64,000 nucleotides of DNA, taken from an uncultured Granulosicoccaceae bacterium (GTDB lineage: Bacteria > Pseudomonadota > Gammaproteobacteria > CALCKW01). A model generated the notes under the pieces. It was not told the origin of the DNA. It saw only the letters and a list, made by a program, of their open reading frames with translations, and searched no databases. Both the position numbers and the translations under genes were made by a program. Below are positions 12,764-55,644 of the stretch, piece after piece (positions within the stretch are counted from its first letter, which is position 1; each line of letters starts with the position of its first letter). The stretch is from NCBI GenBank assembly GCA_937965695.1, contig CALCKW010000030.1, positions 8,951 through 72,950 of the forward strand, in the 5' to 3' direction.

Positions 12764-14356
12764 TCAGTACCCTATGGCACAACCATCCTTGCGCGGGTCT
12801 GAGGCCCCCGTTAGCACACCTTGATCCCAGTCGATGGAAATCGCCTGCGAACCGCCAATAGGCCCAACAGCATCGGCAACCCTGTGTCCGCGATCTCGTA
12901 AGGCTGCGACCAGTGCTGCGTCTACGCTTGTTTCGATTTCTACGTCGCCCGAAAACGGATCGACCATAAATCGGGGCAAATCCATAGCTTCTTGCAAATC
13001 CAAGCCAAACTCGTAATGTCGACTGAGAAACTGCAGGTGTCCGAAAGCTTGGTACTGACCACCCATAACGCCGTAGCTCATCTGTACTTTGCCACCCTGA
13101 CTGATCATTCCCGGAATGATAGTGTGCAGCGGACGCTTACCCGGGGCTATTGCATTTGGGTGCCCTGCTTGCAAACTAAAGCCTTGGCCACGGTTTTGAA
13201 ATACAACGCCTGTATCCGGAGCCATCAACCCGCTACCAAAGCCGTGAAAGACCGTGTTAATAAAACTGCAAGAATTACGATCTTTGTCCACAACGGATAT
13301 ATACACGGTGTCGTTGTGACGCGGTAACATCCATTCTCGCGGAGGTTCAACCGCCCGGTCCGGGTCAATTTGTGCCAACAATTGCGCTGCATACTTTGGA
13401 CTGAGCAGCTCCTCAACAGGCACTTCCGCAAACTTCGGATCTGCCACATAGGCATTGCGCGCAGCGTAAGCCAAACGACACGCTTCCAGTTCAGCATGCA
13501 CACGCTCTTCGGCCAATGCACCTTTCGTTGTGTACGCCCCTTGAAGCATGTTGAGCAGTAACAGTGCAATAACACCTTGGCCATTGGGTGGACACTGATG
13601 TACTTGTCGACCTAAGTAGTCGCTATTAATGGGGTTGACGTACTCGCCTTGTGTATCCCGAAAATCGTCAACGCTGTGCAGCCCACCTTGTTGCTGTAAA
13701 TACGCAGCCATCGATTCTGCCAGCGCACCGTTGTAGAACCCTGCACGCCCTTCTCTAGCAATCAACTCTAAGCTGTCCGCCATCGCAGGCAGTCTATGCA
13801 ATTGACCCACTGCCGGAGCCTCACCGTCGACTAAATAAGCGGCAGCCGTGTTTTCATCTCGACTCAGGTGAGCAGTCGAGTTGTGCCAGTCATGTCTTAC
13901 ACGTGAAGACACGGGAAAACCTTCCCGTGCGTAGTGAATAGCAGGCTCCAGTACAGCAGCCAAAGGCAAAACGCCATGATCTCTGTTGAGCTGATACCAA
14001 CCGTCCACGGCGCCAGGTAAGGTGACTGCGTGCGGTGAATGTTGAGCTATTTCGGAAATACCTTGCTGCGCGTACCATTCAACGGTGGCAGCCTGCGGAG
14101 CCCTGCCAGAACCATTGAATGCTATCGGGGTGCCGCGCCCCCCCGGCGCATAGATACAGAAACAATCTCCTCCAATTCCCGTAGACCCGGGTTCCACGAC
14201 GCCTTGCACGGCAGCGGCAGCGATTGCACCATCTAACGCATTACCGCCAGCCTTCAACATATCTAGAGCGGCTTGACTAGCTAATGGTTGGGACGTGCAC
14301 GCCATGCCTTGCGTAGCGTGCACAGGTGAGCGACCGGGTAATTGGAAATCACGCAT
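12764..14356 (-). CDS. ggt: Gamma-glutamyltransferase family protein (Ntn hydrolase)
   Basis: GIGGDCF, PPNGQG, autoprocessing site HND-TVYISVVD, PGKRPLHTIIPG, GVMGGQYQ, GASDPRKDG. Confidence 0.9.
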   Translation of the reverse strand: MRDFQLPGRSPVHATQGMACTSQPLASQAALDMLKAGGNALDGAIAAAAVQGVVEPGSTGIGGDCFCIYAPGGRGTPIAFNGSGRAPQAATVEWYAQQGISEIAQHSPHAVTLPGAVDGWYQLNRDHGVLPLAAVLEPAIHYAREGFPVSSRVRHDWHNSTAHLSRDENTAAAYLVDGEAPAVGQLHRLPAMADSLELIAREGRAGFYNGALAESMAAYLQQQGGLHSVDDFRDTQGEYVNPINSDYLGRQVHQCPPNGQGVIALLLLNMLQGAYTTKGALAEERVHAELEACRLAYAARNAYVADPKFAEVPVEELLSPKYAAQLLAQIDPDRAVEPPREWMLPRHNDTVYISVVDKDRNSCSFINTVFHGFGSGLMAPDTGVVFQNRGQGFSLQAGHPNAIAPGKRPLHTIIPGMISQGGKVQMSYGVMGGQYQAFGHLQFLSRHYEFGLDLQEAMDLPRFMVDPFSGDVEIETSVDAALVAALRDRGHRVADAVGPIGGSQAISIDWDQGVLTGASDPRKDGCAIGY

Positions 14357-14836: not shown

Positions 14837-15280
14837 ATGCCCTACCCGTCTAAAACTATAAAATTCAACGTCTTAAAAGCAATCGTTTTGACTGTTACCG
14901 CATTTTTTTGCAACCCTGCTGCGAGCTTTGCGGCAGACGCTCCGCCTTGGACAGTGAAAACAAAAAATCGTATTTTTGAAGTCACGCTTGGACCGCAAGA
15001 TGGGCCAATTCGTATTAATACAGTGCAGAAATGGATCGTGTCGATCCAAGACGCCAGTGGAAGAAAGATACATTCAGCAAACGTACAAATAGACGGGGGC
15101 ATGCGTGGCCACGGCCACGGTTTACCAACGCAACCACAAATCACTGAGAATTTGGGTGAAGGGCGTTATTTGATTGAGGGTCTGCGCCTGAACATGGTTG
15201 GCGCATGGACCTTGATGATTGGCGTAGAGTTGCTCGAAAGACGTGACGTAGCAACTTTTGAGTTTGAGATCGACTATTGA
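14837..15280 (+). CDS. Secreted YtkA/FixH-like protein with MxxHxH motif
   Basis: Signal peptide (SFA-A); DGGMRGHGHGLPTQP and GRYLIEGLRLNMVGAWTL. Confidence 0.7.
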   Translation: MPYPSKTIKFNVLKAIVLTVTAFFCNPAASFAADAPPWTVKTKNRIFEVTLGPQDGPIRINTVQKWIVSIQDASGRKIHSANVQIDGGMRGHGHGLPTQPQITENLGEGRYLIEGLRLNMVGAWTLMIGVELLERRDVATFEFEIDY

Positions 15281-16497
15281 TGAAAGTTCTTGTTGCATTA
15301 GCTTTGATAGTGAGCACTTCTGCAATTCTAGCTGACTCAGTTGTCTGGACCGAGCGAGAACTGAGAGTCCTACAGAGTTTTAATCTAAATAATTTAGGCC
15401 CCGCTCCTTATCAACCTTCAAATGCTTACGCAGATAATAAGGATGCGGCTGAGCTAGGCAAAAAACTGTTTTTTGACAAACGGTTGAGCGCGAATGGTGA
15501 GTTTTCTTGCGCCAGTTGTCATCTCCCAGAAAAACACTTCACTGACGGCAAACCACGTGCTGTTGGCCTAAAGGCCACTGGTAGAAATACGATGAGCATT
15601 GTTGGTAGCGCACACCAACGTTGGTTCTACTGGGACGGTCGCAGAGACTCACTGTGGTCGCAGGCGCTTATTCCATTCGAAGCACCAGAAGAGATGGGTA
15701 GCAGTCGCACTGAAGTCTTGAAACAAATCATGACTGACCCCCAATTGAGCCAGCACTACCGGCGAGTTTTTGGGGAGTTCCCCAAGGGAATAGACTCCGC
15801 AAAACTACCCGATCACGCCGGGCCATACGCTGACAAAAAAGGCAAGGACAGCTGGAATCGTTTGAACCCTATGCGCCAGCGAAAAATAAATAGCGCCTAC
15901 GCCAATGTCGGTAAAGCCATCGCTGCTTATGAAAGAACCCTTGAATATGCCCCCACCCGATTCGACCGATACCTAGACGAACTAGCAACGGGTAAAAAAG
16001 ATAGCAATGTGCTGAATTCTGAAGAGAAGTCTGGTGCCCGTTTATTCATTGACGCGGCTAAAACCCAGTGTTTGCAATGTCACAACGGACCAACATTCAG
16101 TAACGGAGATTTTCACAATATCGGCACGGGTAACTTCAGCGGCGAACATTTAGATTTTGGGCGTGTATTCGGACTTCAGGCGGTGCTGTTGGACGAGTTC
16201 AATTGCTTAGGTCCCTTTAGCGATGCGGCCAAAGGACAGTGCACAGAGTTGCGCTTTTTAAAACGCAATGCCCATGTTCCACTGGAAGGTTCTTTCAAAA
16301 CACCTAGCTTGCGCAACGTTTCAGAGACTGCTCCCTATTTTCACGACGGCAGTAAAACAACTCTGGAGTCCGTCATAAAGCATTACAACGTACCTCCAGA
16401 CAGAAAACAGGTTGGTGCTCACGAGTTGCGCAAACTTGAACTCAGTGTTGAAGAAGAAAAACAACTGGAGAGTTTCTTGCGGACATTGTCAGACTGA
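15277..16497 (+). CDS. Di-heme cytochrome c peroxidase-family protein (MbnH/MauG-like)
   Basis: Signal peptide; CASCH, CLQCH; YWDGRRDSLWSQA; FKTPSLRNV; PYFHDG..VIKHYN; 4-bp overlap with upstream gene. Confidence 0.88.
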   Translation: MMKVLVALALIVSTSAILADSVVWTERELRVLQSFNLNNLGPAPYQPSNAYADNKDAAELGKKLFFDKRLSANGEFSCASCHLPEKHFTDGKPRAVGLKATGRNTMSIVGSAHQRWFYWDGRRDSLWSQALIPFEAPEEMGSSRTEVLKQIMTDPQLSQHYRRVFGEFPKGIDSAKLPDHAGPYADKKGKDSWNRLNPMRQRKINSAYANVGKAIAAYERTLEYAPTRFDRYLDELATGKKDSNVLNSEEKSGARLFIDAAKTQCLQCHNGPTFSNGDFHNIGTGNFSGEHLDFGRVFGLQAVLLDEFNCLGPFSDAAKGQCTELRFLKRNAHVPLEGSFKTPSLRNVSETAPYFHDGSKTTLESVIKHYNVPPDRKQVGAHELRKLELSVEEEKQLESFLRTLSD

Positions 16498-18296: not shown

Positions 18297-19061
18297 ATGG
18301 AAATACAAGGCAATATAGCTGTCGTTACCGGTGGGGCCAGTGGACTGGGCGCAGCAACAGCCGCGCACTTCGCAAGCTTGGGATGCAAAGTTGCAATTTT
18401 TGATTTAGACCGAGAGCGCGGTGAGCAACACGCAAAGGATATTGATGGCTTGTTTGTTTCAGTGGATGTTAGCGATGAAGTGAGTGTCAGTGCAGGACTC
18501 GATGCTGTAGAGAATTGGGCGGGCTCCTCCGTGCGCGTGCTTGTCAATTGCGCAGGCATCGTTATTGGCAGCAAAACAGTTGGTAAGCATGGTGCGCATC
18601 CTCTAGCTGACTTTGAAAAAGTTATAAGAATAAATTTGATTGGAACTTTTAATTGCACTCGGCTAACAGCTGCACGCATGAGCGAAGCGCAGCCCTTGAA
18701 CTGCGGTGATCGAGGCGTTGTGGTCAGCACTGCAAGTGTGGCTGCGTTTGATGGCCAAGTGGGACAGGCGGCATACAGCGCTTCTAAAGCGGCTGTGGCG
18801 GGCATGACTTTGCCTATTGCGCGAGATTTGGCTAACAATGCCATTCGCGTATGCACTATCGCACCCGGAATTTTTATGACCCCAATGATGGCTGGTATGC
18901 CTGAATCAGTTAAACAAACTCTGGGAGACTCAGTACCCTACCCAAAACGCATGGGCGATCCCCGTGAGTTTGCCAAAACTGCAGCTCATATTGTCGATAA
19001 CCAATACCTCAATGGTGAAACGATTCGTATCGACGGCGCTATTCGTCTAGCACCTCGCTGA
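18297..19061 (+). CDS. Type II 3-hydroxyacyl-CoA dehydrogenase (SDR, HSD17B10-like)
   Basis: VTGGASGLG, VNCAGI, ASVAAFDGQVGQAAYSASK, YLNGETIRIDGAIRLAPR. Confidence 0.92.
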   Translation: MEIQGNIAVVTGGASGLGAATAAHFASLGCKVAIFDLDRERGEQHAKDIDGLFVSVDVSDEVSVSAGLDAVENWAGSSVRVLVNCAGIVIGSKTVGKHGAHPLADFEKVIRINLIGTFNCTRLTAARMSEAQPLNCGDRGVVVSTASVAAFDGQVGQAAYSASKAAVAGMTLPIARDLANNAIRVCTIAPGIFMTPMMAGMPESVKQTLGDSVPYPKRMGDPREFAKTAAHIVDNQYLNGETIRIDGAIRLAPR

Positions 19062-19168
19062 TTCATAGAGACTGTGTAGCCTAATTCTTTGGCAAACAGC
19101 CAATAGGAAATGACGCCGATGAATTCACGTTGCTCCACTACAGCTTGTACGCTTGGTCAACGCAAGCC

Positions 19169-20983
19169 ATGATATCTTTTTTAAGACAAGCAGAATCGCT
19201 GCTCGCGACTGCGGCAAACAATCGTCATCGCGTATTGATCACTTTTTCTGGTGAACAGCAATGGGCTGAGCAGCAAGCAACCGACCTTTTGGACCAACAG
19301 CAAACTACACCCTTATGGGTTAGCGACTCTTTAGAGAAACGACCAGAAGCAATTGATTTCAATAGCAGTCGGCGTTGGCTGGGCCGAGAAGTCGACGCTC
19401 TGGTATTTGACGCCCACTCAGGGTTTGATCCGAATATTTTTGCGTTGCTGTGTGGCACTGTTAAGGCGGGAGGAGCACTAATATTACTGACACCTGCTTT
19501 AGAACGCTGGGACCTGCATGCCGACCCTGTAAATAATCGATGCAGTATCTGGGGTCAGTCAGTCCAGCGCTCTCGCTACCTCGCTCGTTTGAGCCTACGG
19601 ATACCAGATACGTCACAACTATTGGTACAGCAGGGTAAAGAACCACGTTGCGTCAAACTGCTTAAAAACGAGTCCACCCCCTCCAGCTTTAACGAGCAAA
19701 AAAAGCTCGTGCACCAGCTAGCCGATCAGTTTGAAAATGCGCCTGTCCAGCTAGCGATAATAAGTGGCGATCGAGGGAGAGGTAAGTCAGCTGCCCTTGG
19801 GCAATTAGCCGCTGAGTTCGCTCGGCGCGGAGCTCACCGACTGCTGGTTAGCGCACCCCGCAAAGCAGCAGTAGATGTGTTGCTGGTACATGCCCGCAAT
19901 CATTGGCCAGACGATGCACCCAAACTGGAAACGTGTTTAAATTTTGTATCGCCAGACAGCTTAAGCTTAGAGCCACAAGCTTGTGATGTGTTACTGGTCG
20001 ACGAAATGGGTGGTATACATTTAGGTCTATTGACCAAGCTCTTAGCGCAGTACCCTAGATTAATCATGGCGGGCACCGTCCACGGTTACGAAGGCGCAGG
20101 AAGAGGATTTCATACGCGGCTTCGCAATCACGTTGTGGATCATTACCCGCACGGCTACTGGAGCAATCTACAGCAACCCATTCGCTGGGCCTCAGATGAT
20201 CCCTTAGAACGTAGTTGTAATGATTTGTTGATGCTAAATGCAGAAAGCAAAGCGATTGATACCGACTGCGCTGCGTTTGACTGGCTGGATCGAAATAGTC
20301 TAGCGATTGATGAGCCGCTCTTAAGGCAAATCTACGGGCTGCTCGCCACAGCACACTACCGCACCCGGCCACTGGATTTGCGCCAAATGCTAGATGGTCC
20401 AAACTTACGATTGGCCGTTTTGCGTCGCGAGGAAACAGTGCTCGCGGCTTGTTTGGTCGCTCAAGAAGGCCCAATAAACGACGACGAACTCATCGCCGAA
20501 ATTATGGCAGGGAGACGCAGGCCTTCCGGTCATCTGCTTCCGCAATTACTTTTACAAAAGCGGCAGATCCCACTAGCGGCGACGGGTACCTTTTGGCGTG
20601 TGGTGAGAATCGCCGTACAGCCTGAATGCCAGAACCAAGGGTTTGGCAGCGAACTGCTGCAACACCTACAGCGAGAAGCTAGGGCTGCAGGCATAAACTT
20701 CATCGGCAGTATTTTCGCAGCAGATGGTCGCGTCATTCGTTTTTGGACGCGAGCTGAGTATCATCCCGTGCTGTTGGGGGATAACTGCGAAGCCACCAGT
20801 GGGAGTTACGCGTTGACGGTTCTCAAGCCATTGACTTCAGCCGCTGACTTTATCTTTGCTAGCGCCAAAGATTGCTGGACCAAGTACCCGAATAAGGATT
20901 TAAAAAAGAGCCATCCCGCGCTGTCGGCAGAGTTGCGAACAGTTATCAAGCAGTCACAACGAACCGATACTATCCCCGAATAA
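19169..20983 (+). CDS. tmcA: tRNA(Met) cytidine acetyltransferase TmcA-like (helicase + GNAT), C-terminally short
   Basis: HRVLITFSG, GTVKAGGALILLTP, Walker A GDRGRGKS, GYEGAGRGF, PIRW..DPLE, AHYRT, GRRRPSGHLLPQ, RVVRIAVQP; ATG 19169 preferred over TTG 19130. Confidence 0.88.
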   Translation: MISFLRQAESLLATAANNRHRVLITFSGEQQWAEQQATDLLDQQQTTPLWVSDSLEKRPEAIDFNSSRRWLGREVDALVFDAHSGFDPNIFALLCGTVKAGGALILLTPALERWDLHADPVNNRCSIWGQSVQRSRYLARLSLRIPDTSQLLVQQGKEPRCVKLLKNESTPSSFNEQKKLVHQLADQFENAPVQLAIISGDRGRGKSAALGQLAAEFARRGAHRLLVSAPRKAAVDVLLVHARNHWPDDAPKLETCLNFVSPDSLSLEPQACDVLLVDEMGGIHLGLLTKLLAQYPRLIMAGTVHGYEGAGRGFHTRLRNHVVDHYPHGYWSNLQQPIRWASDDPLERSCNDLLMLNAESKAIDTDCAAFDWLDRNSLAIDEPLLRQIYGLLATAHYRTRPLDLRQMLDGPNLRLAVLRREETVLAACLVAQEGPINDDELIAEIMAGRRRPSGHLLPQLLLQKRQIPLAATGTFWRVVRIAVQPECQNQGFGSELLQHLQREARAAGINFIGSIFAADGRVIRFWTRAEYHPVLLGDNCEATSGSYALTVLKPLTSAADFIFASAKDCWTKYPNKDLKKSHPALSAELRTVIKQSQRTDTIPE

Positions 20984-20998
20984 TGGTAATATGACTTG

Positions 20999-21847
20999 AT
21001 GATCGAGCCTGCAGATATCACCGTTGTTATACCAAGTTTCAATCGCGCGCACTGCCTGCCACGAGCGCTCGACTCTGTATTAGCCCAAACACTGAAACCA
21101 CTAGAAATTATCGTCGTAGATGACGGCTCGACAGACACCACAACTCAGCTATTAGCTGATCAGTACCGCGGTATTAAAGCGATCTATCAGGACAATGCTG
21201 GTGTAAGTGCAGCAAGGAATACAGGCATTAGTGCTTCAAAAGGTGTTTGGATCGCTCTACTGGATTCAGACGATGCTTGGCACTGCGATAAGTTGAAACA
21301 ACAACTCGAAGCAGTCCAAGAATTCCCTCAATCGCGCTTGGTACATTGTGACGAACTCTGGATACGCAACGGAGTACGGGTCAATCCTAAAAATCGCCAC
21401 CGAAAATCTGGCGGTTGGATATTTGAGCAATGCCTGCCGTTGTGTGCCATTTCGCCCAGTGCAGCGCTGATTCGTCGCGATGTGTTTGAAGACATCGGCT
21501 TATTCGACGAAAACCTCCCCGCCTGCGAAGACTACGACTACTGGTTGCGTTTTACACATCAAGAGCCGGTGTTGTACATAGATAAAGCGCTGCTGAGTAA
21601 ATATGGCGGGCATGATGATCAGCTCTCGCGTGCTCACTGGGGAATGGATCGTTTTCGTATACAAGTACTTTTCAAGCTATTGCGTACTGCAACCCTCGAC
21701 AGCACACAACGCTGTGCTGCCATCGAGGTATTGAGCGGAAAAATCAAAGTATTTGCAGCAGGTGCCCGTAAGCGTGGCCGTGAAGAAGAGGCTCAACAAC
21801 TAGAGTCAGAACTCTCGATGATTGAATATACCGGTTCGGTGCAATGA
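20999..21847 (+). CDS. Glycosyltransferase family 2 (GT-A)
   Basis: VVIPSFNR, VVDDGSTD, GVSAARNTG, LDSDD, CEDYDYWLR, YGGHDDQLS. Confidence 0.93.
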   Translation: MIEPADITVVIPSFNRAHCLPRALDSVLAQTLKPLEIIVVDDGSTDTTTQLLADQYRGIKAIYQDNAGVSAARNTGISASKGVWIALLDSDDAWHCDKLKQQLEAVQEFPQSRLVHCDELWIRNGVRVNPKNRHRKSGGWIFEQCLPLCAISPSAALIRRDVFEDIGLFDENLPACEDYDYWLRFTHQEPVLYIDKALLSKYGGHDDQLSRAHWGMDRFRIQVLFKLLRTATLDSTQRCAAIEVLSGKIKVFAAGARKRGREEEAQQLESELSMIEYTGSVQ

Positions 21848-22656
21848 CCGTTTATGTCGTAGCATTGCCGGCGGAAGCTCGCCCAATCATTGACGCGCTG
21901 AAGCTCAAAAGAAAAATCGATAAGCCCTGGTCTACTTATAGCAACGGCGACGATCACTTGCTGGTCACCGGAATTGGTCAATTAAACGCCGCCGCTGCCT
22001 GCGGGTGGTTGATTGGACACGCTCCGAGCCTTGCACGTTTACCGTGGCTTAATATCGGCATTGCTGGTCACGCCTCGCATGCACTCGGTGAGCTTTTCTG
22101 GGTAGAGAAACTGCAAGGTGTACGTGGAGGTTACTACCCGGCACTGCACTGCACTAACGCTCTACCCGGAGCTGTATTGAAAACGGTGGACGAACCCTGC
22201 TCTCTGTATGTCGACGAAAAGCTGGTTGATATGGAAGGCCTCGCCTTCTATTTAACTTGCTCTCGTTTTGTGCCACTGGAACTCGTTCATCTACTCAAGG
22301 TCGTTTCGGACAACAGAGAAAATCCGCTTGAGAGTTTCGACAAAAAGTCAGTGCCGGGTCTAATCCAAAACAACATTGATAAAATAATTAGCTTCTCGAC
22401 AGCACTGACTCAGCTTGCCGATAGCTTGCCTGAGCCGACGCCCGTCGGCCTCGAGGAGTGCATACTAGAATACTCTAGCCGATGGCGCTTTAGTCATAGT
22501 CAGACTCAACAGTTATACAAATTGCTCAACCGCTACTACGCGTTGACACAATTATTGTTGAGCCCTAACGACTTAGAAACAAAGGCTAGGGATGCTAAAC
22601 AAGTTCTCTCGATGCTGGAGGTCGAGATAGAGAAACTTCCGGTGGTGCTGCGATGA
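21844..22656 (+). CDS. Nucleoside phosphorylase/nucleosidase-fold protein (MTAN/HpnG/MqnB-like) with C-terminal extension
   Basis: VVALPAEA, TGIG..NAA, LNIGIAG, VDMEG, KVVSD match the PNP_UDP_1 motif series; ATGA overlaps at both ends. Confidence 0.78.
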   Translation: MTVYVVALPAEARPIIDALKLKRKIDKPWSTYSNGDDHLLVTGIGQLNAAAACGWLIGHAPSLARLPWLNIGIAGHASHALGELFWVEKLQGVRGGYYPALHCTNALPGAVLKTVDEPCSLYVDEKLVDMEGLAFYLTCSRFVPLELVHLLKVVSDNRENPLESFDKKSVPGLIQNNIDKIISFSTALTQLADSLPEPTPVGLEECILEYSSRWRFSHSQTQQLYKLLNRYYALTQLLLSPNDLETKARDAKQVLSMLEVEIEKLPVVLR

Positions 22657-23660
22657 TAGATACAATTTACATTGAAGAAGCCGTTCAACAACACCCTCGC
22701 ACGTTGAAGGTTCTGGAGCGTTTTCCAAAAGCACGGCGAATAGTCTGCGAACGCTATGGTGAAATATTCAACAGAGCACAACAAAGTTTCAGGGTTCAAA
22801 AACAAAAACCTGCGCTCGTACTGGCTCACAAGTCAGGGAATCGAGTACTGCCTGCTCCAGCAGACTACGGTATCGGCGGCCAACACAATTTCTACTTTTC
22901 GCACCTGTACAATTGCCTGTACGATTGCCGTTATTGTTTTTTACAAGGCATGTACAGAAGCGCGAATTACGTCATGTTTGTCAACTACGAAGATTTTTTT
23001 GATGACATCAAAGAACAGCAGGACAAACTGGATGCGCCTGGTTGGTATTTTTCTGGTTACGACTGTGACTCACTCGCTTTGGAACCTGTCACTCACTTTG
23101 TGTCTGAGGCATTGCAGTGGTTTGCACACCAGCCACAGGCTAATCTCGAGCTTCGCACCAAGAGTACGCAGATAAGATCCCTTCTCAAGTTGGAACCCCT
23201 AGACAATGTGGTAGTTGCCTGTAGCTTGTCACCCGACCCTATTGCTAGATCTCTTGAGCATGACGCTCCTTCACTTGATCGTCGAATCGCAGCACTGGAG
23301 AAAGTTGCAGAGGCCGGTTGGAGAATAGGCTTACGCTTTGATCCGCTCATCTGGTGTGATGACTACAAAGAGGTGTACGCAAAATTCTTTGACGATGTTT
23401 TTTCCCGGTTACCCCAAGCCAGTATCCATTCAGTCAGTACCGGGAGTTTTCGCCTACCTCCTGAGTTTCAGCAAAAGCTAGCTAAGCTCTACCCGCGTGA
23501 TGCGTTGCTGGCTGGCCCATTAGCACGCAACGATCGATGGGTAGGATTCCCCGTAGAACGCGAGCAAGCGCTATTACAGTTTGCGCAAGACCAAGTCGTG
23601 GGTGCTGTGGGCCAAGATAGGTTCTTCCCCTGCCAGTTTTCTGCGGAGAACGTATCTTGA
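22653..23660 (+). CDS. Spore photoproduct lyase-family radical SAM protein
   Basis: NCLYDCRYCFLQ (CxxxCxxC), GYDCDSLALE, ELRTKS, SLSP, LEH..PSLDRRI, GLRFDP. Confidence 0.85.
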   Translation: MIDTIYIEEAVQQHPRTLKVLERFPKARRIVCERYGEIFNRAQQSFRVQKQKPALVLAHKSGNRVLPAPADYGIGGQHNFYFSHLYNCLYDCRYCFLQGMYRSANYVMFVNYEDFFDDIKEQQDKLDAPGWYFSGYDCDSLALEPVTHFVSEALQWFAHQPQANLELRTKSTQIRSLLKLEPLDNVVVACSLSPDPIARSLEHDAPSLDRRIAALEKVAEAGWRIGLRFDPLIWCDDYKEVYAKFFDDVFSRLPQASIHSVSTGSFRLPPEFQQKLAKLYPRDALLAGPLARNDRWVGFPVEREQALLQFAQDQVVGAVGQDRFFPCQFSAENVS

Positions 23661-23671
23661 ATGGCGCGAGA

Positions 23672-24391
23672 TCACTGCAGATCGGCAAACCAACTGTGCT
23701 GAGGCAGCATAATATTTTGCAAATCGCTCAAGAGGTTTTTCTCGCTGAGCAATTCGAGCGCTCCTTGGTGATCAGGAGAGAGCAGCAAAGCTACAACCAA
23801 AGCTATATACACCAGAGATGTCACAAACAAGTTTTTACGATCGTAAAACTTCAAGGCCGTGCCAAAGGATCTTTTAATGCGACGGCCCATCAAGTTGACC
23901 GAGACCATCTCGTCCAACAGGAGGTGCAGCAGGTACCCAATTGTGACAAAGCTGCCGTAGATCCAACTCAACAATCCGGTCATATTGAAACCATAAGCCA
24001 TCAAATTTGTGGTCAATACTCCTGCCAGAACCGCAGCTGGAATAGAGTGGAACATACCGCGGTGAACAGTGATCAGCTGAAACGATTTGAGCAACGCCAA
24101 ACGCACGACCAAATAGACAACGACCCACAGAACCAACATTTCAGCTACCGAGTAAGTCGCGGATTTGCTGAACATGATCACAAACGACACCACGATAGCA
24201 ACAGCATTAAACGTAATGGTTACCGGCGTAGAGTTTTCGGAATCGATATCGGGCAAAAAGCCACCGATCGTACCCAAACTAAATGCGACCATCGCTTCAG
24301 TACTGTCGATATGATTGAGCGCCAACAGCCCGCTAGAGGTTGCTCCGCTGAGCGCCGCCGCCGCCGCGAAGTGAGTTTTGAAGTTTGCCAT
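23672..24391 (-). CDS. YdjM/DUF457-family membrane metal-dependent hydrolase
   Basis: N-terminal TH, LPDID, HRGMFHS, HLLLDE; multiple TM helices. Confidence 0.82.
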   Translation of the reverse strand: MANFKTHFAAAAALSGATSSGLLALNHIDSTEAMVAFSLGTIGGFLPDIDSENSTPVTITFNAVAIVVSFVIMFSKSATYSVAEMLVLWVVVYLVVRLALLKSFQLITVHRGMFHSIPAAVLAGVLTTNLMAYGFNMTGLLSWIYGSFVTIGYLLHLLLDEMVSVNLMGRRIKRSFGTALKFYDRKNLFVTSLVYIALVVALLLSPDHQGALELLSEKNLLSDLQNIMLPQHSWFADLQ

Positions 24392-24513
24392 ATGATCTTT
24401 TTTTTAACTCGATACCTTGGCGTGATTGTAGTCCCTGAGCGAGCGCCGTGGAAATCAAATTGGTACTGGTGCGAAATATCTTTAACTGAACGTCGGCACA
24501 GGAGGACACGCCA

Positions 24514-25689
24514 GTGGAATATCGGTACACACAAGCCAAAGACCTAACGCGACCAACTCAGGTGTCAGTCAATCTCAGTGCTATCGCTCACAACTATCAA
24601 CAGTTTTGCGCCCATGTTGGCGACGCGAAAGTCATGCCGGTGGTTAAAGCAAACGCCTATGGTCATGGCTTAGAAGAAGTCGCTCTCTATTTACGCGAAC
24701 TTGCCCCTCCCTATTTTGGTGTGGCAACCTTCGAGGAGGCACTTAGCCTTCGTGACTGTGGCATCGATACGCCAATTTTAGTGTTTGGAGGTATGTTTGA
24801 TGAGCAAATACCGTTATATATCAAACGTAAACTGACCCTGACCGCTTCCTCTGTCAGCAAACTAAAATCTATCGATAAGGCAGCGGAAAAACTTGGAATT
24901 CGTCCGAATGTACATCTCAAGATAGACACAGGCATGGAACGGGTTGGCGTGCATTATTACAATGCTGACCATCTCCTTACAGCGGCTCGTCATTGCCAGC
25001 ATGTCACTGTCACAGGCATCTATACACATTTTGCCAGTGCTGACGAGGCCGACAGTTCTTTTTACAACACGCAATTGCTACGATTTAAGCAAGTCTGTGA
25101 ACGAGCAAAAACTGAGCTTGGGCAATTGATTATTTGCCATGCAGCCAATTCTGCAGCAGCAATTCGTTATCCAGAATCTCATCTGGATATGGTGAGAGTC
25201 GGCATCTCCCTATTTGGCGTTTTGCCCGCTTTAAATATTAGACACACGCTGAATCTTCGTCCAGCACTGACTTGGCATTCAAAAGTGGTTTATTTTAAAG
25301 TGGTTCGTGCTGGCGACACTGTGAGTTATGGTGGAACATGGGCTCCCAAAACAGACACTCGCATTGTCACCGTTCCTGTTGGTTATGCTGACGGTTATAG
25401 CAGACAGCTTTCGAATATAGCGCAAGTCCGGATCCATAATAAATACTATCCAGTCATTGGTAAAATATGCATGGATCAGCTTATGGTCGACATTGGTCAA
25501 GACAGCGCATTCAACGGGGATACCGTGACCTTGCTTGGCGAAGGCATAGACGCGCATCAACTAGCCAGCTGGCAGTCAAGCATTGCCTACGAGGTACTCA
25601 CAACTATTGGATCGAGAGTGCCTCGCGCCTATGTATTCGACAATGAATTAAACGATTCAGAAAAAAACGGACAATCTTATGATGAATGA
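24514..25689 (+). CDS. alr: Alanine racemase
   Basis: PLP motif VVKANAYGHG, HLKIDTGM, THFA, ANSAA, VSYG, GYADG, CMDQ. Confidence 0.95.
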   Translation: MEYRYTQAKDLTRPTQVSVNLSAIAHNYQQFCAHVGDAKVMPVVKANAYGHGLEEVALYLRELAPPYFGVATFEEALSLRDCGIDTPILVFGGMFDEQIPLYIKRKLTLTASSVSKLKSIDKAAEKLGIRPNVHLKIDTGMERVGVHYYNADHLLTAARHCQHVTVTGIYTHFASADEADSSFYNTQLLRFKQVCERAKTELGQLIICHAANSAAAIRYPESHLDMVRVGISLFGVLPALNIRHTLNLRPALTWHSKVVYFKVVRAGDTVSYGGTWAPKTDTRIVTVPVGYADGYSRQLSNIAQVRIHNKYYPVIGKICMDQLMVDIGQDSAFNGDTVTLLGEGIDAHQLASWQSSIAYEVLTTIGSRVPRAYVFDNELNDSEKNGQSYDE

Positions 25690-26943: not shown

Positions 26944-29268
26944 TTAGAGCTTGCTGAAGTCATCTGGCTCTTCAATAACTTCACGTTTAACAGCAGCGTT
27001 GTCTTCAGAGTAACCGTAGTAATCATAGTAACCCTGATAGTAATGGTCACCACCGTAAGACTGGAGCTTTTCTACGTCTACCTGCGTGACAACTATGCCC
27101 TTTATCTTTGCGCCCACTTGCTTCATGCGAGAAACACCACGCTGTGCCAGCGGCATGGGTGTCACTACTGAGCGAACGACATATAGAACTGCATCAGCAC
27201 TTTGTGAAAGTACTAAGGAATCACTAACGGCCTGGACCGGAGCACAATCGATAATCACTCGATCGTAGTGCTTGCGTAGCTGATCAAGTAGATACGCGAA
27301 TCGTTTGCTTGATATCAATTCCAGAGGATTGCTAGGCACCCCTCCGGCAGTCATTACATCCAAGTTACCAATCACACCTTTCATAATGCAATCTTGTGCT
27401 TTGGCGGTTTTTTCGACCAAGTTGGCCAAGCCTACAGCATCAGCGGGCAAACCCAGCGTCTTATGAACACTTGGTCGACGCATGTCAGCGTCAATCAACA
27501 AGACTTTTTCAACCTGCGACATTGAATATGCCAGATTGATCGATAACGTCGATTTACCTTCGTTGGGAACAGATGACGTGATCATGATGACCTTGTCAGA
27601 CACATCCCCTGAATTGAGCGTGACACCTGTACGAATAGTCCGAATAGATTCAGAAAAAGTACCGCGTTGGTCATCAATTGCCTGCGGACTCAATGGCAAG
27701 TCTGTCGCCTTCCCAAAAAGACCTTTTCCGTATTTGAGTTGGGGGATTATCCCTAATAGAGGTAAGCCTAACTTCGCCTCAATGTCCTCTGCACCACGGA
27801 CAGAGTCATCCATGTATTCCCGCAAAAATGCAAATGCCAATGAACCGATCAAACCGGCCAAAAATGCTAATGCAACGACCAGAGCTTTCTTTGGCTTACT
27901 CGCGAAGAATGGCGGTACCGCCTGATCGGAGATATGAGCATTAGTAGAGTTCAAACTGCCGGTCTCGTCTGTCTCTCGGATACGGCTAAAAAATGTATCG
28001 TATAAATTTCGGTTTGCATCGACTTCGCGCTGAAGCTGATCCAATTCAAAAGACTTACGACCTATGTTTTGGATCTCAGCTTTACCGCTTGCAACCGAGC
28101 GCTGTAAAGTTCTGACATTTGTTCTCGCAAGATCAGCATCTTTTTCGATAGACGACATTATCCGTCGAATTTCCAAATCAAGATTTCTCTCAATAACAGC
28201 TAACCGCGATCGAGCATCAACCATCTTCGGATGGCGATCACCATACCTGTTGGCTAGCTCATCCAGTTCACGCTCTACACTTGCTCTCTCAACTTTGTAG
28301 GTTTGAACAATTCCACTTCTCTGAACTGCTGGCATATTTTCCAACAACTCGGGTGCCGATTGGCGCAAGCGCTTCACTTCATCGAGAAGTGCATTCTTTT
28401 CTGCAGACTCACGTTGCGCATCAATGAGCTTGCCTGAGAAGTTGGCAAGTTCTTGTTCATTATAACTAGTAACACCACCACCAAAGTCTACTAGCTGGTT
28501 GTCTTCCTTATACTGCTGAAGCTTGCGTTCCGACTCTTCCAAGGCGACTTTTAAGCCCGACAGCCTCTCCCCCATCCACGCTGACGCAGTCGCAGTCTGT
28601 TCTGCTTTGGTGTCGAGATAGTTCTCAATGTATGCCTCGCCAACAGAGTTTGCTGCTCGTGCAGCAAAGACAGGGTCTGGCGATTCAAAACTGATTTTTA
28701 CCAGTTTGGTTTTTCTTACAGGACTGATCGTCAATCTGCGTAGAAAGGTCTCAGCTGCGACCAAACTCTGTGTTTCAGAATCCATCTGAGCAAAGCGTCG
28801 TTCACCCTCTGTTTCACCGGCAGGAACAACTTCTTGCCCAACGCCGATACCTGCCAACATATTGGAAATAATTGAAGGCTGAGGTTTGCCATTAAATTCG
28901 GGGTGAGTAGTCAGGTCTAAATTCTGAACAATTTTTTCCGCAAGCTCTCTAGATTTCAATATTTCATACTGAGTCTGAAAGTAATCTGAGCTGGTCTTGT
29001 CGATACCATAGAGATCTTCTATGGATACAGCATTTTTCTTTTCGCCTTCAATCAAAAGTGTGCTTGTCGCTTCAAAAATCGGTGTAGCTGTCTGAGCATA
29101 TAACGCTGCAACACCCGTCAAAATCGACGTACAGGCAATAACAAGCCATTTGTTCTTAACGATTACACGCAAGTATTCGCGAAGGTTGACTTCTCCCTCG
29201 TCTCCGCCTTGCCTTGATGAGCCACTGTAGTATTGGTTGTCATCGTTTTGCTGATTAAAGATAGACAT
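26944..29268 (-). CDS. Fused polysaccharide co-polymerase/tyrosine autokinase (Wzc/GumC/VpsO-like)
   Basis: Wzz-type N-terminus, coiled periplasmic region, ESIRTIRT, Walker A SSVPNEGKS, LIDADMRRP, IIDCAP, Tyr cluster YYQGYYDYYGY. Confidence 0.93.
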   Translation of the reverse strand: MSIFNQQNDDNQYYSGSSRQGGDEGEVNLREYLRVIVKNKWLVIACTSILTGVAALYAQTATPIFEATSTLLIEGEKKNAVSIEDLYGIDKTSSDYFQTQYEILKSRELAEKIVQNLDLTTHPEFNGKPQPSIISNMLAGIGVGQEVVPAGETEGERRFAQMDSETQSLVAAETFLRRLTISPVRKTKLVKISFESPDPVFAARAANSVGEAYIENYLDTKAEQTATASAWMGERLSGLKVALEESERKLQQYKEDNQLVDFGGGVTSYNEQELANFSGKLIDAQRESAEKNALLDEVKRLRQSAPELLENMPAVQRSGIVQTYKVERASVERELDELANRYGDRHPKMVDARSRLAVIERNLDLEIRRIMSSIEKDADLARTNVRTLQRSVASGKAEIQNIGRKSFELDQLQREVDANRNLYDTFFSRIRETDETGSLNSTNAHISDQAVPPFFASKPKKALVVALAFLAGLIGSLAFAFLREYMDDSVRGAEDIEAKLGLPLLGIIPQLKYGKGLFGKATDLPLSPQAIDDQRGTFSESIRTIRTGVTLNSGDVSDKVIMITSSVPNEGKSTLSINLAYSMSQVEKVLLIDADMRRPSVHKTLGLPADAVGLANLVEKTAKAQDCIMKGVIGNLDVMTAGGVPSNPLELISSKRFAYLLDQLRKHYDRVIIDCAPVQAVSDSLVLSQSADAVLYVVRSVVTPMPLAQRGVSRMKQVGAKIKGIVVTQVDVEKLQSYGGDHYYQGYYDYYGYSEDNAAVKREVIEEPDDFSKL

Positions 29269-29342
29269 TTATATTCTCTAGAATTTTATTGCGCCGATTC
29301 GTCAATGATTCGACCACTACTGAAAATTGTTTACTGTAAGTG

Positions 29343-29882
29343 TTAGAAAAAACCTTCTTCAACAGTGACTATGTCGCCAGGCTCAATGGAGTGCTGAAAG
29401 CCGATTTTAGAACGCTTGTCAGAATCACCTCGAAGCAGATATATTTTTCGACGAGAAGCACGGTCTGTAAAACCTCCGGCTATAGAAACCGCTTTCTCGA
29501 GAGTCAAACCAGGTTGGTAAGGATAGTCCCCTGGGCTGCTAACCTCTCCATTAATAAAAAACGGACGGTATTCGAGCACCGTGACACTGACACTAGGGTT
29601 TAACAAAAAGCCTTCTTTCAGTTTATCTGAAACTAACTCTTCTACTTCCTCAGTCGTTTTCCCTGTTATTTCCAGCTCGCCCAAGTAAGAGTAGTTAATT
29701 CTTCCTCGATTATTTAGCCGCGTTTCTACCGTTAAGTCATTTTCGTCAAAAACTTTGATCAGGATCTTGTCACCCGTATCAAGCAAATAGTTATCACCAA
29801 CGTCTGCACTGTTTCCAAGCAAAGGAAAGCTAAGCATCACTAGAACAACAATACTTTTCAACCATCTAAACATCATGCTCAC
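29343..29882 (-). CDS. Short polysaccharide export (OPX) protein, VpsN-like
   Basis: YLLDTGDKILIKVF, GRINYSYLG, YRPFFINGEV..PG.YPY, AGGFTDRA, PGDIVTV; no lipobox or OM helix. Confidence 0.9.
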   Translation of the reverse strand: MSMMFRWLKSIVVLVMLSFPLLGNSADVGDNYLLDTGDKILIKVFDENDLTVETRLNNRGRINYSYLGELEITGKTTEEVEELVSDKLKEGFLLNPSVSVTVLEYRPFFINGEVSSPGDYPYQPGLTLEKAVSIAGGFTDRASRRKIYLLRGDSDKRSKIGFQHSIEPGDIVTVEEGFF

Positions 29883-29935
29883 ATCTCCAGAACTCTTTAA
29901 TACACTATAAATTTTTACAGGCAGCCTATTGGAAC

Positions 29936-31288
29936 CTACAGGTTCCCTTCCAAGCCTAAGTACAACAGTTGCCTCTGCGACTCAACATTATCTGAATCGA
30001 GGTCATCGGTCGTTGCACCAACCAACACATTAAGCCAGCGACGCACTGCCAATCGGCCTTCTAAAGAGAAAACACGCCGATCTGAAGACTCAAAATTCGC
30101 ATCATCCTTGCTCGTCTCACTACTCTTGTAAAATGCGATCGTCGTGTTGAATCGTTCACTCCAACCGTGCTTCCAACGAACACCTACATTGGATGTTTTT
30201 ACTGAGCCTGCAGATCCACCGTTCGTCGTGTCGTCGATAAACTGGCGAACAAAAAAGTTGGCTGTACTGTATGAGCGGATCGCCCAGTACAAGTTCGCAC
30301 CTAAGGTTGTGTCATTGCCACTTGTCGCAACATTGTTAGTAGCCTGTCGATTGCTGTACTCCCAATTCGAGGCAGCCACGAAAGCATCTCCGTACCAGAG
30401 TCCACCATCGCTCCAGTCGGCACTTAAAACCAGAGTTGTAGCATCTCTGTCACGACGGTCATTGTCGGAATTATCGTCGTCAGTGTATTCATAATTACGC
30501 TGACTAACTCTAGCAGACAAGGTGGTTTTTCCAGTCAATTTGTAGGAGAACCTCCCCCACAAAATACTCATATCACGGTTGTTTTCTTTTAGGAATTCTT
30601 CATTCTCGACGTATTCCAATGTCCCCAATGAAAAGCCACCTGTAAGCTCGCCCCTTGATCGCGGGTTGCCATACGAATACGTCAGTCCGATTCTGCTCAA
30701 CGTATAAGTATCTGAAGAGTCAATATCGCTAAAATCGGTTTCCCCACGAGTACGGCCCGTTCCTAATTCCTCGCTCAAAATAGAATGAGAGATTTCTGCA
30801 TCGACGCGATTACGGTTGTCCAAATCAAAATGAGCAAATCCCCGTAATCGAAAATCAGCGGTGTTGGCATTACTTCCTTCACCATCGTGCTGTCGAATAT
30901 CACCACGTAACAAGCCCCAAAAAACCGACTTGCTTCCTTCGGCGATTAGATCGAGCTTGGGGATCACACGAACTTGAACAGCGTTAGTCTGCTCCTCGCC
31001 TTCTTGGTAATACAAATTGTCTATTGATGTAACGCGGACAGCACCTGATGGGTAGAAGCCTGCTTCCCCTACAGGGACCGCGATTGCGTAGTCACCTGGA
31101 AATTCTTCGCTGCCATAATCTTCAGTGGTCAGTCGAGGCGCCAATTCAATGTCTGGCGCTGCTATTGCTGTTTGGCCCAGCCCTAAAAAGGCGCAAGACA
31201 AAACCATCAATCTAAAATTTAGATTATTTTTTACGAATTTAGAATACGATGATTTAGACGCAGACACGATTTTTCCTTTAGCAAGCAT
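29936..31288 (-). CDS. Outer-membrane beta-barrel of a polysaccharide locus (VpsM-like)
   Basis: Signal peptide, alternating amphipathic strands, C-terminal YLGLEGNL, position directly upstream of OPX and Wzc. Confidence 0.75.
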   Translation of the reverse strand: MLAKGKIVSASKSSYSKFVKNNLNFRLMVLSCAFLGLGQTAIAAPDIELAPRLTTEDYGSEEFPGDYAIAVPVGEAGFYPSGAVRVTSIDNLYYQEGEEQTNAVQVRVIPKLDLIAEGSKSVFWGLLRGDIRQHDGEGSNANTADFRLRGFAHFDLDNRNRVDAEISHSILSEELGTGRTRGETDFSDIDSSDTYTLSRIGLTYSYGNPRSRGELTGGFSLGTLEYVENEEFLKENNRDMSILWGRFSYKLTGKTTLSARVSQRNYEYTDDDNSDNDRRDRDATTLVLSADWSDGGLWYGDAFVAASNWEYSNRQATNNVATSGNDTTLGANLYWAIRSYSTANFFVRQFIDDTTNGGSAGSVKTSNVGVRWKHGWSERFNTTIAFYKSSETSKDDANFESSDRRVFSLEGRLAVRRWLNVLVGATTDDLDSDNVESQRQLLYLGLEGNL

Positions 31289-53915: not shown

Positions 53916-54103
53916 TTGCTCCGTAGAACGACCATTTCAACCAGTTCCCATATCGGTATCATGGAAGTATAGAAGCAAAAAACACACCTGATAATACAAA
54001 AGTGTACACGGCGCATTTAGAAGCCTGCTCCCATTCAAAAAACGCAAATTCTCCGAATCAGAGGACTCAAGTTTCGATAAGCATCGCTCTACTGCCTAAA
54101 TCT

Positions 54104-55327
54104 CTACTTGTCCAGCTCTTCGAATATCCAAGAACTCAGCGTTTTAAGCTTGACCTTCCAATCCATTTTTTGTCGGAGTTGTTCTACAACTGTCGCAAAA
54201 TGGTCAGCGTCTAAATGCTTGCGCCAGCTTAATAAAGGCTCCAAAGCAAACACTTCGCACGTATTAGGCACCAGATAACACAACCGCGAGTCACCGCCGA
54301 CATCAACATCAGGCGCGGCACTTATCCAAGGTATGCCTGCTTCTAGGTACAGCCTAACTTTGAGCGTTGAGCTCTCACTCATTGCTAACTTATAAGTAGA
54401 TAAACTATCGATAGCCAAATGGCAACGCGACAATAACTGTAAAAGCTCGGCTTGCTCCAACTCGCCAACCCTAATAATCTGAACCTTTGAGCAAGAGTCT
54501 GTTGCAATTCGTACGTCTTCCACTTGTGTGCTATTCAAATGCCCAACTAAAAACACCTCAATATTACTTTCGCCGTCATAGTTTAGTAACGATGCGAGCA
54601 AGCGAGGCAGTCCGTGCCAAGGTCTAAAGCGATCGGCAACAAAAACAAAACGAAACACGCTTTCTATCGAATTGAGCTTTATCGGCCTGCTTGAAAACTT
54701 AGCGCCATTAGGTAAAACCAACAGTGGCATATTTAAAGGCAAACGAGCACGTTTCTGTTGATGCTCCAAAAATTCATTAGTCACGGCTACTATTCCGGAT
54801 GCATTTCGCAGTCCACGAGGTGCGAGAAAAATTTCGAAAAGATAAGTGATCAACTTTACCAATGACGGCATTCCACTTCGCCATACCTCTTGCAACTCTT
54901 TTGTGTGGTGTTCGAAAAATACTTTTCCCTGATGTTTTCTCATGAAACTCAACATACTCGGATCTGCAAAGCTGTACCTCAGAACCAACGCGTAATATTC
55001 ATTAGTGGGTACAAGACATGAAATATAGCGGTACTTAAGCCCACGTATTTTGAGCCCGGCAAAACGCCCGATAGAGGTATCGATTTTCACAAAAATCAGA
55101 TTGCCTTCCCTACCACTTTTTTCTCGGTTAAGAAGATAAAAGTCGATGGACAAGCCTGCAGAATTTGCTGCTTCTGCCATTTCAGTCAGCTTACGAACAA
55201 CTCCTGACATTCGCCCCTTTGAGAAAATAATACTTATATGTGCGATATTTTTGGAATTTATCGATTCTAAATTTCGGCCGGCCAAATGATTAGGTTTAAG
55301 CCTCATTAGAGCAATTCCAGCAATCAC
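54104..55327 (-). CDS. Glycosyltransferase, GT-B (GT4-like)
   Basis: SGVVRK, FEHH, LPNG, PWHG, SSTLKVRLYLEAGIP; start uncertain. Confidence 0.68.
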   Translation of the reverse strand: MIAGIALMRLKPNHLAGRNLESINSKNIAHISIIFSKGRMSGVVRKLTEMAEAANSAGLSIDFYLLNREKSGREGNLIFVKIDTSIGRFAGLKIRGLKYRYISCLVPTNEYYALVLRYSFADPSMLSFMRKHQGKVFFEHHTKELQEVWRSGMPSLVKLITYLFEIFLAPRGLRNASGIVAVTNEFLEHQQKRARLPLNMPLLVLPNGAKFSSRPIKLNSIESVFRFVFVADRFRPWHGLPRLLASLLNYDGESNIEVFLVGHLNSTQVEDVRIATDSCSKVQIIRVGELEQAELLQLLSRCHLAIDSLSTYKLAMSESSTLKVRLYLEAGIPWISAAPDVDVGGDSRLCYLVPNTCEVFALEPLLSWRKHLDADHFATVVEQLRQKMDWKVKLKTLSSWIFEELDK

Positions 55328-55644
55328 TAAGAGTTTGCAATATTTTCATGGCCCTGACATTCCAAGCTCTCTCGATTAAGAAATCCATGAGTAATTTTGT
55401 AAGTAGAAAAGCAGCCTTGTCCATTGAGAGCATAGCCACGCTTACAACGCCTTCTTCGTTTCCTGCTGCATTCATCGTAGAGCGCTACCCAACATATTTA
55501 ATACCTACTTCAACCATTCACTTGCTTAGCCGTGTAGGGCAATCATAGTACGCTTGTCGCTTAGCAAACGTACTCCGGTGCCAATTAGCCCTTTAAAGCA
55601 CTTAGTTGCCGCTGTAGTATCAGATCTTTTATACGAACGGCAAG

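Follow-up and report, generated by a model that had tools for sequence, protein, structure and literature searches.

The three overlapping genes for a family 2 glycosyltransferase (GT2), a nucleosidase-like protein of the MTAN fold and a radical S-adenosylmethionine (SAM) enzyme of the spore photoproduct lyase (SPL) family, found in a 64,000-nucleotide stretch of DNA from an uncultured Granulosicoccaceae bacterium (assembly GCA_937965695.1, the host genome; contig CALCKW010000030.1, positions 8,951 to 72,950 of the forward strand, this whole stretch being called the window), are best read as one variant of a conserved module of up to four genes, which probably makes a SAM-derived sugar compound rather than repairing DNA. 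The trio had been singled out in a first-pass annotation made from the letters of the window alone, as soluble enzymes joined by consecutive overlaps. Both ATGA overlaps (21844–21847 and 22653–22656) are indeed present between the three + strand open reading frames (ORFs), and none of the proteins has a 19-residue Kyte–Doolittle window above 1.5 (a membrane protein used as control reaches 2.38). Full-text literature searches for this gene set returned no paper and no described function, and no member of the module carries a curated family name or a described function.

Linkage was followed in 400 Gammaproteobacteria, sampled evenly from the families of the class (the class sample). Of these genomes 57 had a match to the nucleosidase profile, SPL orthologues (E < 1e-80) were found in 50 and GT2 orthologues (E 1e-58 or better) in 54. 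A nucleosidase with the C-terminal tail described below occurs in 49 genomes from 35 GTDB families; 48 of them have an SPL orthologue and in the 49th the SPL gene is cut by the contig end. Only two SPL-positive genomes are without a nucleosidase match, both of them congeners of the host with a decayed copy of the gene. Nucleosidase and SPL genes are adjacent in 43 of the 48 genomes, and where they have moved 430 and 271 kb apart (G343 and G163 respectively) both are kept. The order in 30 loci with 1.5-kb flanks was GT2–nucleosidase–SPL on one strand in 21, nucleosidase–SPL in six, GT2–nucleosidase in two and nucleosidase alone in one. The linkage is far beyond chance. It is strongly supported that the GT2 is tightly tied to the nucleosidase (GT2 orthologues are present in 42 of the 50 SPL-positive genomes) and that the invariant core consists of the nucleosidase and the radical SAM enzyme, so that the earlier proposal of a trio holds for the linkage but not for the GT2 as a constant member, which was not found in eight of the 50 carriers. 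The first-pass annotation had set recurrent linkage and phosphorylase–SPL fusions against independent assortment of the genes; the linkage recurs both in the class sample and in the species loci described below, fusions exist, and the genes co-occur across genomes rather than assorting independently. A signature-motif scan with one genome per species places the subfamily in at least 591 species-level genomes, among them cultured methanotrophs such as Methylobacter tundripaludum, and Granulosicoccus, and the closest homologues bear the names of Granulosicoccaceae-type gammaproteobacteria. In a phylum-wide sample it was present in two of 281 genomes, the host included, so its distribution is patchy beyond the lineages of the class sample.

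The possible fourth gene encodes a classical short-chain dehydrogenase/reductase (SDR) of 233–247 aa, which lies directly downstream of the SPL gene in 13 of 25 SPL-orthologue loci with long flanks; a tie between such a reductase and the radical SAM enzyme in many other lineages is strongly supported. When the best 80 species loci were sorted by arrangement, SPL followed by SDR was found in 36, GT2–nucleosidase–SPL in 17 (plus one with TmcA and one with a decayed nucleosidase), nucleosidase–SPL–SDR in 15, all four genes (GT2–nucleosidase–SPL–SDR) in five, nucleosidase–SPL in two and, with short flanks, SPL alone in three. The pairwise ties thus form a chain, in which GT2 is joined to nucleosidase by fusion and adjacency, nucleosidase to SPL by fusion and a predicted complex, and SPL to SDR by adjacency. 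A Pfam search of the two genes next to the module on either side in 33 loci (127 ORFs) brought up no further conserved member.

Fusions bear out the nucleosidase–SPL tie directly. A natural nucleosidase–tail–SPL fusion of 657 aa (L079/P0199) occurs in the class sample, and used as a query against 1.84 billion representatives a nucleosidase–SPL fusion gave 4487 matches. Among the best 150 of these, 41 are nucleosidase–SPL fusions, always in that order, and 35 are at least 560 aa long; the query itself ranks fusions high, so 41 is a count and not a frequency. A word-indexed search for longer SPL proteins found only one fusion, the full HMMER scan being more sensitive. Nucleosidase–GT2 fusions of 493–501 aa are present in three genomes. 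Five further SPL-family proteins of 460–506 aa (P0294, P0303, P0306, P0310 and P0330) carry an N-terminal truncated nucleosidase remnant that covers profile positions ~12–110 or 12–182, and these look like intermediates between the full fusion and a long form of the SPL protein. This long form (411–476 aa, with an N-terminal extension) is found in seven of the eight genomes whose nucleosidase has no tail, and in six it is unlinked to the nucleosidase. The same eight genomes all have a GT2 orthologue, which adjoins the nucleosidase in seven, and in six the linked SDR follows the nucleosidase. Profile–profile comparison aligns the extension of the long SPL form end-to-end with the nucleosidase tail, with a shared YRF[ST]xQ/RWRFSxSQ motif (E 0.006, probability 6%); single-sequence hhalign of the extension against the tail gave nothing and the tail hidden Markov model (HMM) misses the long SPL proteins, so that homology of the two segments is suggested only by this profile similarity.

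The tail itself, which the first-pass annotation had noted as some 80 extra residues, is a real addition to the fold: residues ~190–270 are extra and helical (helices at 178–194, 203–213, 218–235 and 251–263 in the AlphaFold2 (AF2) model), and the tail-less relatives are only 189–205 aa long. Tail and SPL orthologue go together: 48 of the 49 genomes whose nucleosidase is tailed have the orthologue, and none of the eight with a tail-less one does. The modelled complex of the nucleosidase with the SPL-family enzyme has an interaction prediction score from aligned errors (ipSAE) of 0.85 (0.84–0.85 over three runs; 0.01 for the best of three controls), with at least 93% of contacts shared between runs and a partner predicted local distance difference test (pLDDT) value of at least 90. 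The mark applied to this score is reached by 58 of 80 solved complexes and by two of 110 mismatched pairs, a calibration that is approximate here as our own alignments were used. The predicted interface comprises residues 88–104 and 140–147 and tail residues 191–197, 229–234 and 262–270 of the nucleosidase, and residues 3–54, 196–201, 233–241 and 278–289 of the SPL-family enzyme. On these models a core heterocomplex, in which the tail and two surface patches of the nucleosidase would hold the partners together, is strongly supported; no solved SPL–MTAN complex appeared among the matches of the solved-structure search.

Decayed copies of the nucleosidase show which of its properties are retained longest. 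Three congeners of the host (G001, G004 and G005) have a homologous middle gene (hhalign probability 97%) in which E11, ME and SD, the catalytic-type residues, have been lost. These relics (L041, L042 and L087, in G001, G005 and G004 respectively) are about 220 aa long and still lie between GT2 and SPL, and what they preserve (the YPxIHF loop, the ELV helix and the tail) is the portion for which contact with the radical SAM enzyme is predicted. Family-conserved residues are kept at 20 of 24 alignment cells in the predicted interface versus 50 of 210 elsewhere, and with an 80% conservation threshold at 11 of 12 versus 25 of 114. Among the 41 fusions, all three catalytic-type motifs are present in 25, two in seven, and one or none in nine. 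Because catalytic residues are lost in congeners and fusions while the protein stays, the constant role of the nucleosidase is that of a bound partner, its structural role being more constant than its catalytic one.

By family models the middle protein is hard to place. It has no Pfam match at E 1e-3 (PF01048 included), is not among the three PF01048 matches of the host genome and gave only sub-threshold futalosine-hydrolase or nucleosidase matches in the NCBIfam scan (TIGR03664, 24.2 bits against a cut-off of 124.7), in which TIGR01704 is not listed. Its AF2 model (pLDDT 93.9) has the MTAN fold, with Foldseek matches to MTAN structures at E 2e-11 to 1e-9, target-normalized template modelling (TM) scores of 0.5–0.7 and 14–24% identity to solved MTANs; the structural matches include Helicobacter pylori futalosine hydrolase and Chlamydia CT263. 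Its neighbours in a protein atlas are only unnamed or MTAN-family proteobacterial clusters. Residues E11, M130–E131 and S155–D156 are invariant in an alignment of 31 homologues and correspond to the EME and VSD motifs when aligned with solved MTANs. We take Glu12 and Asp197 of MTANs to be catalytic from the titles of mutant structures, and presumably a Glu activates the water, the Met–Glu pair contacts the ribose and Ser–Asp protonates N7. As judged from these residues the nucleosidase would usually be an active enzyme. As the first-pass annotation pointed out, the S-adenosylhomocysteine (SAH) hydrolase gene ahcY is in the same window, where it adjoins metK (the pair spans 58199–60807). Recycling of SAH and methylthioadenosine is covered in the host genome by AhcY, S-methyl-5'-thioinosine phosphorylase (354 bits against 223) and AMP nucleosidase, and another small nucleosidase is also encoded; with these enzymes present, a housekeeping recycling role for the module nucleosidase was rejected.

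The radical SAM enzyme belongs to the SPL family (PF20903, 77.9 bits against a threshold of 27) and its closest solved relative is the spore photoproduct (SP) lyase of Geobacillus thermodenitrificans (E 2e-11), yet it falls far below the curated models for SP lyase (TIGR04070, 89.1 against 400) and for the SPL family protein of non-sporeformers (TIGR03886, 76.1 against 437.55). It was compared with the G. thermodenitrificans enzyme by HMMER alignment, which leaves Tyr339, Lys309 and the hairpin tip of the latter outside the aligned region. There are 60 invariant columns among 34 orthologues, including C88, C92, Y94 and C95, which align to C90, C94, Y96 and C97 of SP lyase and supply the cluster motif, and F96, which follows the third cysteine. 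According to PMC3467042, D143, K174, S195 and R273 of SP lyase bind SAM, Arg193 and Glu268 bind the dihydrothymine base, and Cys140 and Tyr98 form the radical relay with Cys140 as hydrogen donor. Equivalents of the four SAM-binding residues are retained in the module enzyme. The base-binding and relay residues are not: R193 is replaced by Ala189 and E268 by Gly264, both invariant in the family, Y98 is replaced by Phe96 and the Cys140 column by Tyr136, again both invariant, and a near-invariant Cys138 lies two residues after the latter. Just outside the alignment a possible aromatic residue, Y/F299, can be read by eye at the hairpin-tip position. The family is acidic (median pI 6.3, net charge −3.5 over the 34 sequences). 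The public labels 'DNA photolyase' and 'spore photoproduct lyase' on these genes are probably wrong.

The GT2 protein is a clear member of its family (PF00535, 111.2 bits against a cut-off of 23.3) with a GT-A fold, the motifs DDGS, DSDD and CEDYD, and invariant D90-x-D92-D93 and E178–D179. Its orthologues are unusually conserved (44–66% identity, 60 invariant columns). None of the NCBIfam equivalogs was reached, TuaG being the best with 90.5 against a cut-off of 400. The best fold matches of the AF2 model (pLDDT 91.3) are tied at Z 22–25 (24.9 for the top one, over 216–268 residues) and comprise CgT, WrtF, SpsA, K4CP, TarS and TarP; because of this tie the fold search does not narrow the acceptor.

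On the reading that we favour, with a probability of roughly 0.4, a 5'-deoxyadenosyl compound formed by the radical enzyme loses its adenine through the action of the nucleosidase, and the GT2 (together with the reductase in other genomes) tailors the ribose product. The SPL-family enzyme would cleave SAM, the resulting 5'-deoxyadenosyl radical would be joined to a soluble acceptor at an sp2 carbon, and the conserved Cys138 and Tyr residues would quench the adduct radical. The bound nucleosidase would then take the 5'-substituted adenosine and hydrolyse off adenine to leave a 5-C-substituted ribose, which the reductase, where present, might reduce to an open-chain polyol, and the GT2 would glycosylate the ribose-derived part. 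The first-pass annotation had proposed adenosylation, de-adenylation and glycosylation in the same sense, and this chemistry is only inference by analogy. Its logic would be that of HpnH/HpnG/(reduction)/HpnI and MqnE/MqnB, with a radical SAM fold unrelated to theirs and a substrate other than a hopanoid. More tentatively still, the module may represent a third, independently evolved pathway for grafting the ribose of SAM, in which the SPL-fold enzyme would be functional only as a holoenzyme with its MTAN-fold subunit, would join the 5'-deoxyadenosyl group to a soluble metabolite and would pass the adduct directly to the subunit for adenine removal, yielding C5-extended ribose or ribitol glycosides.

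In PMC13459092 HpnH is described as joining the 5'-deoxyadenosyl radical to an olefin, after which an active-site residue gives up a hydrogen to the adduct radical; HpnG then removes adenine before the glycosyltransferase HpnI acts, and MqnE works in the same way as HpnH. The hopanoid side-chain pathway thus shares with the module a radical SAM enzyme, a small adenine remover of the PNP/MTAN fold, a GT2 and a reduction step in the same proposed order, as well as the need for an active-site hydrogen donor after radical addition (PMC13459092). It differs in that the radical SAM enzyme of the module is of the SPL fold and not of the HpnH type (a distinction that rests on PF20903 membership, the HpnH model not having been scored directly) and in that the module proteins are soluble. 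TIGR03468 is not among the NCBIfam matches of the nucleosidase, and of the Hpn models the GT2 matches only HpnB, with 28 bits against 379. The module nucleosidase differs from HpnG in being tailed, a predicted bound subunit, and fused in many relatives; we know of no report of HpnG in such a form. The host genome (93.6% complete) has no match to squalene-hopene cyclase (TIGR01507), and a role in hopanoid synthesis was rejected on this ground. In the futalosine route a 5'-deoxyadenosyl radical is likewise added to a C=C bond by MqnE and the base is then removed by a nucleosidase of the MTAN fold (MqnB/MTAN), and the best named matches of the module nucleosidase are futalosine hydrolase models, below their cut-off; the differences are that no other mqn genes are in the locus, that a GT2 and a reductase are attached here and that the radical SAM fold is another one. 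MtnN/Pfs has the same fold and catalytic-type residues as the module nucleosidase, which differs by the 80-aa tail and the radical SAM partner. SplB (EC 4.1.99.14; 4FHC–4FHG) shares the CX3CX2C loop, Tyr96 and the SAM-binding residues with the module enzyme, whose family differs in being non-sporulating and acidic, in having an obligate nucleosidase partner and in the shift of Cys140 by two residues. Phage M6 gp53, which is an SPL-like radical SAM enzyme and isomerizes glycinyl-thymidine in DNA (PMC8989533), shows that the SPL fold is used beyond SP repair; going by its description it differs in belonging to a phage DNA hypermodification cluster (kinase, aGPT-Pplase, PLP enzyme), none of which is found here, and this cluster is described without a nucleosidase, GT2 or SDR.

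Several points weigh against the favoured reading. The GT2 is missing from some carriers, as noted above, and the linked reductase is absent from 12 of the 25 SPL-orthologue loci; the host genome itself has no orthologue of the linked SDR, its best match scoring 116.7 bits versus 297–372 for linked copies. The known adenosylating enzymes HpnH and MqnE are not of the SPL fold, and the two characterized SPL-fold enzymes act on DNA (PMC3467042 and PMC8989533). Adduct formation and hydrogen abstraction are not distinguished for the putative radical SAM step. The nucleosidase site is decayed in the three congeners and in about nine of the 41 fusions while GT2 and the radical SAM gene are intact, and if adenine removal were obligatory another nucleosidase would be needed there, for which distant candidates exist. 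This recurrent loss of catalytic residues keeps alive the main alternative, which we hold to be somewhat less likely than the favoured reading. Here a sugar or glycoside that the GT2 makes or uses further would lose a hydrogen to the radical SAM enzyme, the reductase would reduce the keto product to give a deoxygenation- or epimerization-type tailoring, and the nucleosidase would be required as a structural subunit and would in addition destroy the inhibitory by-product 5'-deoxyadenosine on the spot. Loss of catalysis with retention of the contact surface fits a dispensable clean-up function combined with an essential structural one, and SPL followed by SDR is the commonest local arrangement. 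The host genome has no canonical MTAN above cut-off. MTAN relieves inhibition of BioB, LipA and ThiH by 5'-deoxyadenosine, and AprD4/AprD3 is a pair of radical SAM dehydratase and reductase. A mere scavenger would, however, be expected to move with the radical SAM gene, and in six of the eight tail-less genomes the SPL-family gene is at another site; the persistence of GT2–nucleosidase–SDR operons there, apart from the radical SAM gene, speaks for a nucleosidase with a genuine step in the pathway. The nucleosidase–GT2 fusions also have no rationale in this alternative beyond scaffolding, and a canonical MTAN is rare with or without the module (33 of the 400 genomes; two of 50 carriers versus 31 of 350 others), which gives no signal of compensation. 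The favoured chemistry, for its part, gives every enzyme of the module a job.

Readings that keep the enzyme on nucleic acid fare less well. An SPL-fold enzyme acting on a pyrimidine of DNA or tRNA, with partners that build or trim a sugar-bearing hypermodification, would agree with the fact that the only SPL-fold enzymes characterized (PMC3467042 and PMC8989533) act on DNA thymine derivatives, with the possible persistence of an aromatic residue at the hairpin-tip position (Y/F299, by eye) and with tRNA-modification genes as immediate neighbours in three lineages (TmcA in the host's own genus, Dus in L045 and L059, TrmO in L064). Such a substrate is made less likely by the loss of the base-binding residues to invariant Ala and Gly, the acidic surface and the docking of the partner beside the former lesion site (the predicted nucleosidase contacts at 196–201 and 278–289 flank the positions which in SP lyase are turned towards the lesion and the DNA hairpin). 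TmcA moreover assorts independently outside the genus, the flanking genes of the 33 loci are heterogeneous and no LexA box lies near the operon (the single match in the window, at 44952, is at chance level), and we regard this explanation as improbable. A genuine SP lyase for UV or desiccation damage that happens to stand beside unrelated genes is very improbable indeed: the Pfam match, the cluster cysteines and the SAM-binding residues would fit, but the scores far below both curated models, the replaced lesion-binding residues, the Tyr in the column of the hydrogen donor Cys140 and the Phe in place of Tyr98 do not, and the genes beside it are conserved, occur together with it, form fusions and encode proteins predicted to bind. 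The DNA-lesion repair that the first-pass annotation offered as a simpler alternative is accordingly weakened by the replacement of the two thymine-binding residues. A known anti-phage defence system was also considered and rejected, no PADLOC-DB 2.0 family (0) matching GT2, nucleosidase, SPL, linked SDR or the long SPL form.

The features of the locus are collected in Table 1. The TmcA-like gene ends 12 nt upstream of GT2, so the operon begins before GT2; it ends with the radical SAM gene, which is followed by the terminator-like hairpin and the convergent YdjM-like gene. Antisense to the latter, an ORF of odd composition at 23657–24547 (+, 296 aa) is an artefact of the opposite strand of that gene and was rejected as spurious. 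TmcA was also rejected as a member of the module: its adjacency is restricted to loci of the same genus, homologues occur in three families without the module, and it was not found in the carriers G007, G017 and G019, so that this neighbour is probably not part of it.

Table 1. Coordinates of the module and of neighbouring features in the window.
Feature	Position	Strand	Remarks
GT2 gene	20996–21847	+	TTG start at 20996, ATG at 20999; 283 aa
MTAN-fold nucleosidase-like gene	21844–22656	+	270 aa; start overlaps GT2 stop (ATGA)
Nucleosidase C-terminal helical tail, ~residues 190–270	22411–22653	+	AF2 model; conserved RWRFSxSQxxQL
SPL-family radical SAM gene	22653–23660	+	335 aa; start overlaps nucleosidase stop (ATGA)
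CX3CX2C [4Fe-4S]/SAM motif, radical SAM residues 88–95	22914–22937	+	Sequence reading
TmcA-like RNA cytidine acetyltransferase	19130–20983	+	PF05127, PF13718, PF08351
FabG-like SDR	18297–19061		Differs from module-linked SDR
Terminator-like hairpin, both strands, between convergent genes	23695–23711	.	Consensus match only
YdjM-like inner-membrane protein, convergent	23672–24391	-	PF04307, 38.7 bits; maximum hydropathy 2.38
ahcY (SAH hydrolase), outside module	58199–59614	-	PF05221, 490 bits

Other neighbours of the module are sporadic and include HAD or PTP-like phosphatases, Usp, rhomboid and SSF/MFS transporters. A dual-specificity-phosphatase-like gene (153–168 aa, PF22741/PF22785) lies between GT2 and the nucleosidase in two lineages (L043:8457–8963 and L056:8191–8652), and in L047, L048 and L060 the module has HAD-family phosphatase genes beside it; these inserted or flanking genes hint at a phosphorylated intermediate. 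In a few loci the last gene of the module adjoins, or overlaps with, a tRNA-modification gene (Dus at L045:10777–11739 and L059:10540–11502, in related genomes, and TrmO at L064:6313–7035), and this recurrence, with TmcA at the start in the host's own genus, is probably due to chance. Two unrelated genomes have a gamma-glutamyltranspeptidase gene that lies upstream of the module by a few kb (12764–14356, -, in the window and L052:5885–7588). Elsewhere in the window a gene for a YtkA-like protein is followed by one for a MauG/MbnH-type di-haem peroxidase (14837–16497, +; 162.6 bits against the MbnH cut-off of 362.85), and an exopolysaccharide export locus starts with a Wzc-type polysaccharide co-polymerase/tyrosine kinase and a BBP2_2 beta-barrel porin (26944–31288, -). 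The G+C content falls to 0.41–0.43 at 54001–58000, compared with ~0.48–0.50 around it, in a segment that adjoins a GT4 glycosyltransferase gene (57082–58188) and the metK–ahcY pair.

The module is widespread, given the species-level count above and the 4487 library proteins that match its fused form. If the favoured reading is true, a new radical SAM fold would join the few enzymes for which the entire 5'-deoxyadenosyl group serves as a building block, it would do so with a nucleosidase partner as a structural subunit, and the module would point to a new class of metabolite. Should the nucleosidase instead serve as a bound helper, it would be the first dedicated, physically coupled scavenger of 5'-deoxyadenosine. 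If ribose grafting proves to be the function, the products would be glycosides made by hundreds of marine and methane-oxidizing Proteobacteria, and the enzyme would be, to our knowledge, the first of the radical SAM class to require a nucleosidase as a subunit.

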